Part shown: one piece after another, positions 25,001 through 25,962 of the stretch
Position numbering within the stretch: position 1 is the first letter of the stretch
How the letters are laid out: each line of letters opens with the position of its first letter
NCBI RefSeq assembly: GCF_964213995.1
Contig: NW_027590151.1
Span: 930,001-994,000, forward strand
DNA from: Mustelus asterias
Lineage: Eukaryota
Length of the DNA stretch: 64,000 nt
Direction: 5' to 3'
Notes under the pieces: model-generated
What the model saw: the letters and a program-made list of their open reading frames with translations, nothing else
Database searches by the model: none
Told to the model about the DNA's origin: nothing
Program-made: the position numbers and the translations under genes

Positions 25001-25027
25001 CAACTCTTCTAGCTCCCCTCCCCCCAA
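22022..25027 (-). CDS. CR1 ORF2p (AP endonuclease plus reverse transcriptase)
   Basis: [44 protein letters not shown]. 1001 codons without a stop; the track's start codon is TTG. Confidence 0.95.
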   Translation of the reverse strand: MGGGELEELTRIKELIDGVEDAGVRGITKLMVEERVQVNEGGNLDKGVEGEGVRDSSKRVQIKAGIRTLCLNARSIRNKVYEFMVQISTSGYDLVAITETWLKGDQDWEMNIQGYQAFRKNRQEGKGGGVALLIRDNIRVVLRDDIGSEEQNVESLWVEMRNSRGRKTLVGVVYRPPNNNVEVGRAINKQIRDACKNGTAIIMGDFNMHIDWQTQVGKGGMEEEFLECCRDSFLEQHVTEPTRERAILDLVLCNEVGRIKDLIVKDPLGSSDHNMVEFLIQMEEEKVWSQTSVLCLNRGKYDRMRDELAKVDWESRLAGRIAEEQWRIFMEILFSSQQKYIPAKNKDCKKRENQPWITKEIKESIKIKTAAYRVAKNSGETSDWEKFKKQQRETKKAIKKGRIDYEARLAINIKNDSKSFYKYIKRNRVARVNVGPLEDERGELIVGNEDMAESLNKFFVSVFTVEDTNSLPNINDRGLAAGEILNIINVTREAVLGRLMGLKVDKSPGPDGMHPRVLKEMSEVIVDALVIIYQNSLHSGVVPVDWKTANVTPLFKKGRRQKAGNYRPVSLTSVVGKMLESIIKEEIAGHLDRNGSINQTQHGFMRGKSCLTNMLDFYEDVTRAVDGGEPVDAVFLDFQKAFDKVPHKRLLKKMRAHGVGGSVLKWIGDWLSDRKQRVGINGCFSGWRKVTSGVPQGSVLGPQLFTIYIDDLEEGTECRVTKFADDTKISGKVNRVEDGEDLQRDLDRLSEWARIWQMEYNVDKCEVIHFGGNNNKWDYYLNGNKLKHATVQRDLGVLVHETQKPSLQVQQVIKKANGMLAYIAKGIEYKSRDVLMHLYRALVRPQLEYCVQYWSPYMRKDILALEGVQRRFTRLIPEMRGLDYEERLRRLGLYSLEFRRMRGDLMETYKIMRGLDRVEAERFFPLSKEVKTRGHSLKIKGGRFKTELRRNFFSQRVVNLWNSLPTEVVEATSLNMFKARIDGFLIGKGIKGYGDQAGKWY

Positions 25028-25032
25028 CCTAT

Positions 25033-25962
25033 CTAGTTTAAATTCTCCCCAGTAACTTTAGCCAACCTACCGGCCAGGATATTGGTCCCCGTGTGATTCA
25101 AGTTCCACCCGTTTTTTGTATACAGATCACCCCTGCCCCTAAAGAGGTCCCAATGGTCCAGGAACCTGAATCCCTGCCCCCTGCACCAGTCCCTCAGCCA
25201 CACATTCATCTTCCACCTCACTCCATTCCTGCCCTCACCTTCCCGTGGCACAGGCAGTAATCCTGAGATTACTACCTTTGCTTTCCTCTTTCTCAGCTGT
25301 CTCCCTAATTCCCTGTACTCCCTTTTCATGACCCCTTCTCCCTTCCTACCCACATCAGCGGTACCAATATGTACCGCTACCTCAGGCTCCTCTCCCTCCC
25401 ACCTCAGGATTTCCGGGACGCGACTAGCGACATCCTGGATCCCGGCCCCAGGGAGGCAGACCACCATGCGAGAATCCCGCCTACCTCCGCAGAAACGCCT
25501 GTCTGTCCCCTTCACCATCGAGTCCCCGATTAATACCGCCTTCCTCCTCTTTTCCTTAGCCCTCTGAGTTACAGGGCTGGACTCCACTGCGGAGACACGG
25601 CCACTGCTGCTTCCCCCAGGCGGGCTGTCCCCCCCAGCAGTACTCAAGCAGGAGTACTTGTTGTGCAGGGGCAAATCCACTGGGGTGCTCTCAACCACCC
25701 TAGCCTTACCCTTCCTGGCCATCACCCACTTGGCCTCCTCCCGTTGCCCTGGTGTGACCACCTGATGATAGCTCTTGTCTATCACCTCCTCATTCTCCCT
25801 CATCAGCCTAAGATCCTCGAGCTGCAGTTCCAGCTCCCTAACACGGTCCCTCAGGAACCGCAGCTCGACACACCCCTCACAGATGTGGATGTCCGGGAGG
25901 CCAGATGCCTCCAGGACCTCCCACATCCTACACTGGGAACAACACACTGTTTTCACACTCAT
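25033..25962 (-). CDS. CR1 ORF1p (zinc finger plus SGNH esterase)
   Basis: MSVKTVCCSQCRMW..CEGC; LIGDSMVKG; ends GENLN*. Confidence 0.9.
   Translation of the reverse strand: MSVKTVCCSQCRMWEVLEASGLPDIHICEGCVELRFLRDRVRELELQLEDLRLMRENEEVIDKSYHQVVTPGQREEAKWVMARKGKARVVESTPVDLPLHNKYSCLSTAGGDSPPGGSSSGRVSAVESSPVTQRAKEKRRKAVLIGDSMVKGTDRRFCGGRRDSRMVVCLPGAGIQDVASRVPEILRWEGEEPEVAVHIGTADVGRKGEGVMKREYRELGRQLRKRKAKVVISGLLPVPREGEGRNGVRWKMNVWLRDWCRGQGFRFLDHWDLFRGRGDLYTKNGWNLNHTGTNILAGRLAKVTGENLN

Follow-up and report, generated by a model that had tools for sequence, protein, structure and literature searches.

Candidate programmed -1 ribosomal frameshifting at the ORF1/ORF2 junction of CR1 retrotransposons in Mustelus asterias and other vertebrates

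Results

CR1 elements and their ORF1/ORF2 junctions in the window

The region analysed here (the window) is a 64-kb stretch of Mustelus asterias DNA in which the 10-mer TTTAAACTAR occurs four times, compared with 0.32 occurrences expected, a count that none of 100 shuffles reached. All four occurrences coincide with the end of an esterase-type ORF1, as supported by Pfam hits for two full ORF1s. An earlier note on this DNA had described four CR1 ORF1/ORF2 junctions from three families, each with the slippery heptamer T_TTA_AAC directly before the ORF1 stop, and we recovered every one of them at the coordinates, on the strand and with the stop codon given there (Table 1). The -1 frame likewise reads FKLVWQGGG, FKLDRLGGG or FKLICQGSG, as the note had said. 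The three families stood, but the junctions do not all count separately: those at 25036 and 45386 belong to an 8.9-kb duplicate with 99.1% identity (16831-25713 versus 37179-46063), so the window holds three independent junctions, one per family. Either a segmental duplication of recent date or an artefact of the assembly could account for the duplicate. The 5´ part of ORF1 is missing from the copies at 45386 and 62914, and the latter has stops in both ORFs. We also noted a third copy of the 25036 family (50055-52690, plus strand), 5´-truncated and 98.3% identical, from which the junction is absent.

Table 1. CR1 junction features in the window, with offsets (+) counted after the heptamer
Feature	Position	Strand	Remarks
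Junction 1, heptamer + TAG	1426..1435	minus	heptamer 1429-1435
Junction 1, G-tract	1408..1418	minus	GGGGGG-T-GGGG, +11 to +21
Junction 2, CR1 ORF1, 309 aa	25033..25962	minus	N-terminal Cys motif and SGNH/GDSL esterase domain
Junction 2, upstream -1-frame stop TAA	25058..25060	minus	5 codons 5´ of heptamer; no AUG between
Junction 2, slippery heptamer T_TTA_AAC	25036..25042	minus	last two ORF1 codons, Leu-Asn
Junction 2, ORF1 stop TAG	25033..25035	minus	directly 3´ of heptamer; C-TA (Leu) in -1 frame
Junction 2, G-tract	25015..25025	minus	GGGGGG-A-GGGG, +11 to +21, 10-nt spacer; candidate stimulator (putative role)
Junction 2, CR1 ORF2	22022..25057	minus	-1 frame; 1011 aa from one stop to the next, comprising 76-codon linker, APE endonuclease and RT
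25036 element, first in-frame AUG of ORF2	24935-24937	minus	
25036 element, CLNARS Asn of ORF2	~24812-24814	minus	
25036 element, 3´ tail	21921..21944	minus	(TTCTTATG)3 octamer repeats, read from the 3´ end
Junction 3, heptamer + TAG	45383..45392	minus	heptamer 45386-45392; duplicate of junction 2, non-independent
Junction 4, heptamer + TAA	62914..62923	plus	heptamer 62914-62920; 5´-truncated decayed copy
Junction 4, G-tract	62931..62940	plus	GGGG-AGT-GGG, +11 to +20

In ORF1, ORF2 and tail alike, the sequence of the element is that of an ordinary CR1. ORF1 matches the esterase family PF13472 (E 4.7e-10 and 1.1e-11), and the CR1 ORF1 profile matches the ZfL2-1 esterase structure 4C1B (E 9.7e-50). 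The ORF2 domains are PF14529, PF03372 and PF00078 (APE endonuclease and RT), and the 3´ UTR is followed by a (TTCTTATG)3 octamer tail, with no poly(A); the CR1 octamer tail has been described (excerpt of PMC2612034). The junction context matches consensus-library entries labelled LINE/CR1, and the esterase ORF1, APE-RT ORF2, octamer tail and junction are all shared with canonical vertebrate CR1 as represented in the published consensuses and excerpts of PMC13343379 and PMC3905857. A Pfam domain search found no protease domain in the element that could cut a fusion protein. The 25036 family is young, with the best 40 of 700 candidates 100% identical over 241 nt. It is also a chimera (window 24300-25700, minus strand), being 90% identical to one family (L069) until ~55 nt past the heptamer start and 89% identical to another (L166) beyond that crossover, across which the -1 frame is kept.

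The named homologues come from rays, sharks and one chimaera, the exception being one with a bacterial label on a 4-kb contig. This entry (P0018) is an elasmobranch-type CR1 ORF1 deposited as a Pseudomonas aeruginosa SGNH hydrolase, likely through host contamination. In two stingray NCBI gene models (P0040, which bears the label 'hydroxyacid oxidase 2 isoform X1', and P0029), ORF1 continues without a break into F-K-L and the endonuclease, so that they represent in-frame fused copies or fused models. Elsewhere in the window, a tandem array with a unit of ~20 nt (26099-26963) lies just 5´ of the CR1 5´ UTR, and arrays with an 84-nt period occur in open frames at 4981-6111, 8218-8906 and 49088-49791, a period that would fit candidate C2H2 zinc-finger repeats.

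The heptamer is conserved across the Mustelus asterias genome

Genomic copies were picked solely through matches to ORF1 motifs lying upstream of the junction, with a gap of ~30 nt; the motifs gave 6,709, 8,411 and 719 matches, the first 30 of each being analysed. TTTAAAC was present in 78 of the 90 copies, at the exact place in 74 and displaced by an upstream indel in four, and it was directly followed by a stop in 77 of these 78 (TAG 37, TAA 27, TGA 13). Within the heptamer, nine of the 12 misses have small substitutions or a deletion, and three are more heavily changed or rearranged. When copies from all loci were pooled, 161 distinct anchored copies remained (three anchors without a junction were dropped), and the 17 that are without the heptamer are scattered decay variants that form no family.

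The earlier note had held that free synonymous variation at the junction codons would speak against a slip site; we saw none. For comparison we used 16 family representatives, which were chosen for an intact heptamer and an open linker, a selection of which only the 78/90 count and the 108/127 count given below are free. At an H-L-N motif 20 codons upstream in these representatives, Leu is encoded by TTG (5), CTG (5), CTA (3) and CTT (2) and Asn by AAT (6) and AAC (8), and none of 47 internal x-L-N sites reads T TTA AAC. Nearby four-fold sites are 51.5% identical between families (460/893). The base preceding TTA is T although the residue encoded there varies (G, S, T, D, N, A or R). Shared ancestry nevertheless contributes to the invariance of the junction codons, because a few further synonymous positions close to the end of ORF1 do not vary either (Ala GCT 13/13, Phe TTT 9/9). 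The Ala codon lies seven codons before the terminal Leu (25058-25063 and homologous sites) and helps to form the upstream -1-frame stop; GCT may have been selected there to close the -1 frame.

ORF2 lies in the -1 frame and often lacks an AUG start

The endonuclease motif was found in 127 of the 144 heptamer copies (17 were without it) and was in the -1 register in 108 of the 127. The off-frame copies that we inspected are decayed, several through changes in G-run length, and among the multi-copy families whose linker is intact none uses another frame; a variable ORF2 frame was the other pattern that the earlier note had named as contrary. The linkers between heptamer and endonuclease differ widely and range from 43 to 133 codons, but they stay open in the -1 frame, with both other frames blocked in 16/16 representatives, while a shuffled linker stays open with a probability of 0.0005 to 0.10. 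Readthrough of the ORF1 stop was ruled out by one to 11 further ORF1-frame stops in the linker of all 16 representatives.

Start codons are distributed unevenly in this region. No Met precedes the endonuclease motif in 7/16 families, including those of window junctions 1 and 4, while the other nine have a linker Met in at least half of their copies; counting AUG only, a start codon at or just after the ORF1 stop and upstream of the endonuclease is thus absent in seven families and variable in position elsewhere. In four of the seven Met-less families the first Met lies past the glutamate of the TETW motif, which we take to be the metal-binding residue equivalent to L1 E43. The first ORF2 Met in the junction 4 family is mostly far past this glutamate, and in the junction 1 family none of the three frames contains an ATG between heptamer and endonuclease motif. 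On the 5´ side, most families have a stop that closes the -1 frame one to five codons ahead of the heptamer, and an AUG in the -1 frame upstream of F-K-L was found in only 2/101 open copies. The upstream closure and the missing AUGs together mean that ribosomes must enter ORF2 at the heptamer or 3´ of it, in many cases with no AUG to start from.

A G-tract, without a conserved stem-loop, follows at a fixed distance in the family representatives

A G-tract ~8-22 nt downstream of the junctions had been reported in the earlier note. The tract is present, but its position proved sharper: G is invariant from +11 to +14 after the heptamer in 16/16 family representatives, +17 is mostly non-G, and GGG occupies +18 to +20. 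In the -1 frame, +11 and +14 fall on third codon positions. As endonuclease Gly residues use GGG in 88/238 cases, the constraint on the G-tract acts on the letters.

Nested folding of 17 sequences revealed no conserved downstream stem-loop (mean z -0.13, with 1/17 below -2), and folding of the upstream sequence revealed no conserved hairpin (mean z -0.07). The junction gave no Rfam match, and a search within the element for a long-range partner of the G-tract gave nothing convincing, the best duplexes (~-20 kcal/mol, calculated without a control) falling at several unrelated places. ViennaRNA placed a G-quadruplex in the lowest-energy fold of 11 of the 17 sequences; since it is absent from that fold in the other six, a G-quadruplex is not a universal feature. 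The analogy to the coronavirus signal drawn in the earlier note therefore holds for the heptamer but not for a downstream structure, of which nested folding of the 17 sequences gave no sign.

The same junction occurs in other vertebrates

In the consensus library of PMC13343379, of which the first 400 letters per entry were available (giving no denominator), 18 of 23 TTTAAAC-stop matches could be placed by eye at the end of an ORF1. These represent 12 species: elephant shark, catshark, dogfish, stingray, sawfish, bowfin, halosaur, coelacanth, bullfrog, alligator, crocodile and bearded dragon. The remaining five matches are in L2, Rex1 or 5´ UTR sequence. The comparison of CR1 consensuses that the earlier note had suggested as a check thus turned up the same junction within these 400-letter portions. 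The G-run is not evident in some of the consensuses over the same portions (bowfin, halosaur). At the protein level, Leu-Asn is the C-terminal dipeptide of ORF1 from a snake, two turtles, a swallow and a monitor lizard. Scans of amniote genome contigs and of viral contigs found nothing.

Distant relatives exchange one slippery heptamer for another

The C-terminus is complete in 162 ORF1 relatives, and their final dipeptide is LN in 89, GN in 25, KN in four and a different one in 44; after clustering at 60%, LN accounts for 18, GN for six and KN for one of 51 clusters. These are the dipeptides that U_UUA_AAC, G_GGA_AAC and A_AAA_AAC would encode, the KN group being known from protein alone, and the three heptamers are among the four named as most shifty in an excerpt of PMC5009743. 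A metagenome scan with the GN/KN group gave three loci (L191, L192 and L193), the last of which was left out as its contig ends before the junction. ORF1 ends with CAG GGA AAC TAG in L191 and with GCG GGA AAC TAG in L192, and G-runs follow at +13 and +12, respectively. In L191, a CR1-like endonuclease-RT ORF2 is open in the -1 frame from G-K-L onwards and reaches the end of the contig; it is 34% identical to that of the window over 642 aa. This locus has a -1-frame AUG four codons 5´ of the heptamer as well as Mets just before the endonuclease motif, an arrangement that would suit stop and restart; L192 has no such upstream AUG, and its sequence ends 30 nt after the site.

The residue before the dipeptide follows the same rule. 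A T-ending codon is available for the residue before LN in 88/89 proteins and a G-ending codon for that before GN in 25/25. Residues encoded by pyrimidine-ending codons only and by purine-ending codons only stand at 28:1 before LN and 0:22 before GN, a comparison that is pseudo-replicated through the relatedness of the sequences (the GN proteins form six clusters at 60%), so that the nominal p-value overstates it. In each of the two frames the amino acids change, yet the slip rule holds. The swap to G_GGA_AAC is predicted by a slip site and not by protein constraint, and it supports the slip-site reading.

A further scan gave 14 loci, of which four were inspected: three are esterases without an adjoining CR1-type ORF2 and one (L196) is a distant endonuclease element. 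L196 (2001-4357), from a bacterial MAG and likely host DNA, carries an esterase ORF1 and an endonuclease with ORF2 in the -1 register; its ORF1 stop is without a slippery heptamer.

Discussion

Comparison with known frameshift and restart systems

Excerpts of PMC3894237 and PMC5009743 describe the translation of ORF2 in LINEs as an open question. Like retroviral gag-pol and coronavirus 1a/1b, the CR1 junctions combine an X_XXY_YYZ heptamer, a structural ORF upstream and a polymerase in the -1 frame, and U_UUA_AAC is itself the IBV frameshift site (excerpt of PMC5009743). Unlike in these viruses, nested folding gave no conserved stem-loop 5-9 nt downstream and no pseudoknot is evident there, the stop abuts the heptamer, and the element is a LINE in which no protease was found. 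A non-LTR precedent is offered by the Dictyostelium elements TRE5-A and TRE3-A, APE-type elements for which a review states -1 frameshifting in a figure legend (PMC5911963); they belong to a different clade and have a different ORF1. With respect to the stimulator, the -2/-1 signal of PRRSV nsp2TF has no RNA structure and relies on a C-rich motif at a 10-nt spacer, a spacing of 9-11 nt being needed (excerpt of PMC4937337). The likeness to CR1, a short unstructured low-complexity motif at the same spacing, is an analogy only: according to the same excerpt the PRRSV motif is bound by PCBP and nsp1beta, whereas the CR1 motif is G-rich and without a known binding protein.

Alternative explanations

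Mammalian L1 and SART1 share with CR1 a bicistronic non-LTR RNA and a rare ORF2 product (excerpts of PMC3894237 and PMC5009743) but make a separate ORF2p by reinitiation and have no slippery overlap. Termination and reinitiation of this type, with restart at a nearby AUG or non-AUG codon and with the conserved letters and G-tract serving as the restart signal, would accommodate the linker Met of 9/16 families, the AUG four codons upstream in L191, and the CUA or CUG that overlaps the stop in the -1 frame. The AUG-independent initiation described for L1 ORF2 (excerpt of PMC5009743) and the overlapping UAAUG of SART1 (excerpt of PMC3894237) point the same way. However, reinitiation leaves unexplained both the obedience to X_XXY_YYZ and the swap to G_GGA_AAC, the overlapping codon is CUG in only 13/77 copies, and the AUG positions are unconserved (-16 to -60 codons, or absent) while the frame is open from the heptamer to the first AUG. 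We consider reinitiation unlikely.

The remaining two alternatives appear less likely still. If Leu-Asn were needed at the esterase C-terminus and F-K-L at the ORF2 N-terminus, with the letters simply inherited, the invariance of some other synonymous sites near the ORF1 end would be expected, as would the relatedness of the families, whose endonuclease N-termini have a median identity of 55%. Yet relatives replace Leu by Gly or Lys and F-K-L by G-K-L, the 4C1B chain (ZfL2-1 esterase, 171 aa) aligns only to position 296 of the 300 in the profile and is without the L-N end, and normal initiation could not make F-K-L in the 99/101 open copies with no AUG 5´ of it. An explanation by protein constraint and ancestry is thus already largely refuted, and we give it very little weight. 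A separate ORF2 RNA, made from an internal promoter consisting of TTTAAA and the G-box or by splicing to ...CTAG, is similarly improbable. TTTAAA followed by GGGGAGGGG resembles a TATA-like box with a GC box, and TAG could serve as a 3´ splice site, but the TATA likeness is lost in the GGGAAAC of the relatives, 40/77 copies have TAA or TGA and so no AG at this place, and a sub-genomic RNA would still require an AUG, which is absent in 7/16 families. Among contigs from four runs, those of the three runs guessed to be RNA showed no joint across the junction; as contigs are blind to transcript starts, strand and absence, we give this result no weight.

Proposed mechanism

The gag-pol-like ORF1-ORF2 fusion by -1 frameshifting that the earlier note had proposed is supported by the sequence comparisons, in which neither of the contrary patterns named there turned up. 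We think it likely that programmed -1 frameshifting at X_XXA_AAC followed by a stop gives rise to an ORF1-ORF2 fusion. According to this model, a minority of ribosomes would slip by -1 on the heptamer, with tRNA-Leu and tRNA-Asn re-pairing from UUA AAC to UUU AAA, and would read CUA or CUG instead of the stop, producing the transframe peptide ...x-L-N-L-(D/V/I/E)... and an esterase-linker-endonuclease-RT fusion of ~1,310 aa for the element at 25036. Most ribosomes would end at the adjacent stop and release free ORF1p, which would set a ratio resembling that of Gag to Gag-Pol.

What might make the ribosome pause is less certain. Slow termination combined with the G-tract at its 10-nt spacer, acting as a protein-binding site or a small G-quadruplex and without a pseudoknot, is a plausible source of the pause for which we would put the chances at slightly under even. 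More tentative is the extension to every esterase-CR1 element, from those of invertebrate type to those of birds: it is possible that all of these make their RT as a Gag-Pol-like fusion through an ancient structure-free -1 cassette (X_XXA_AAC, stop and, after a 10-nt spacer, a G-run), with a host protein or ORF1 protein that binds the G-run as its driver. Collectively, the junction signal is real and probably functional, and it would represent a variant of a known frameshift mechanism. The word 'frameshift' is absent from the main texts of PMC13343379 and PMC3905857, and we found no statement of CR1 frameshifting in the literature searched; the 1997 turtle CR1 paper, the chicken CR1 papers or Repbase notes may have raised it.

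Implications for CR1 biology

The CR1 group accounts for 22-34% of the genome in sharks and rays (excerpt of PMC13343379) and for 11.8% in chicken (excerpt of PMC11835228). A -1 frameshift would provide ORF2p with the coiled-coil and esterase of ORF1p, allowing the two products to co-assemble like Gag and Gag-Pol. It would also make the present annotation of CR1 ORF2 starts incorrect and require the overlap to be retained in engineered CR1 assays. The whole cassette measures ~30 nt, and a structure-free G-run stimulator would constitute a new kind of frameshift signal. If the lineage-wide proposal is true, CR1 would offer a non-viral case of protein-stimulated frameshifting, and the LINE most abundant in vertebrates other than mammals would contain a regulated step.
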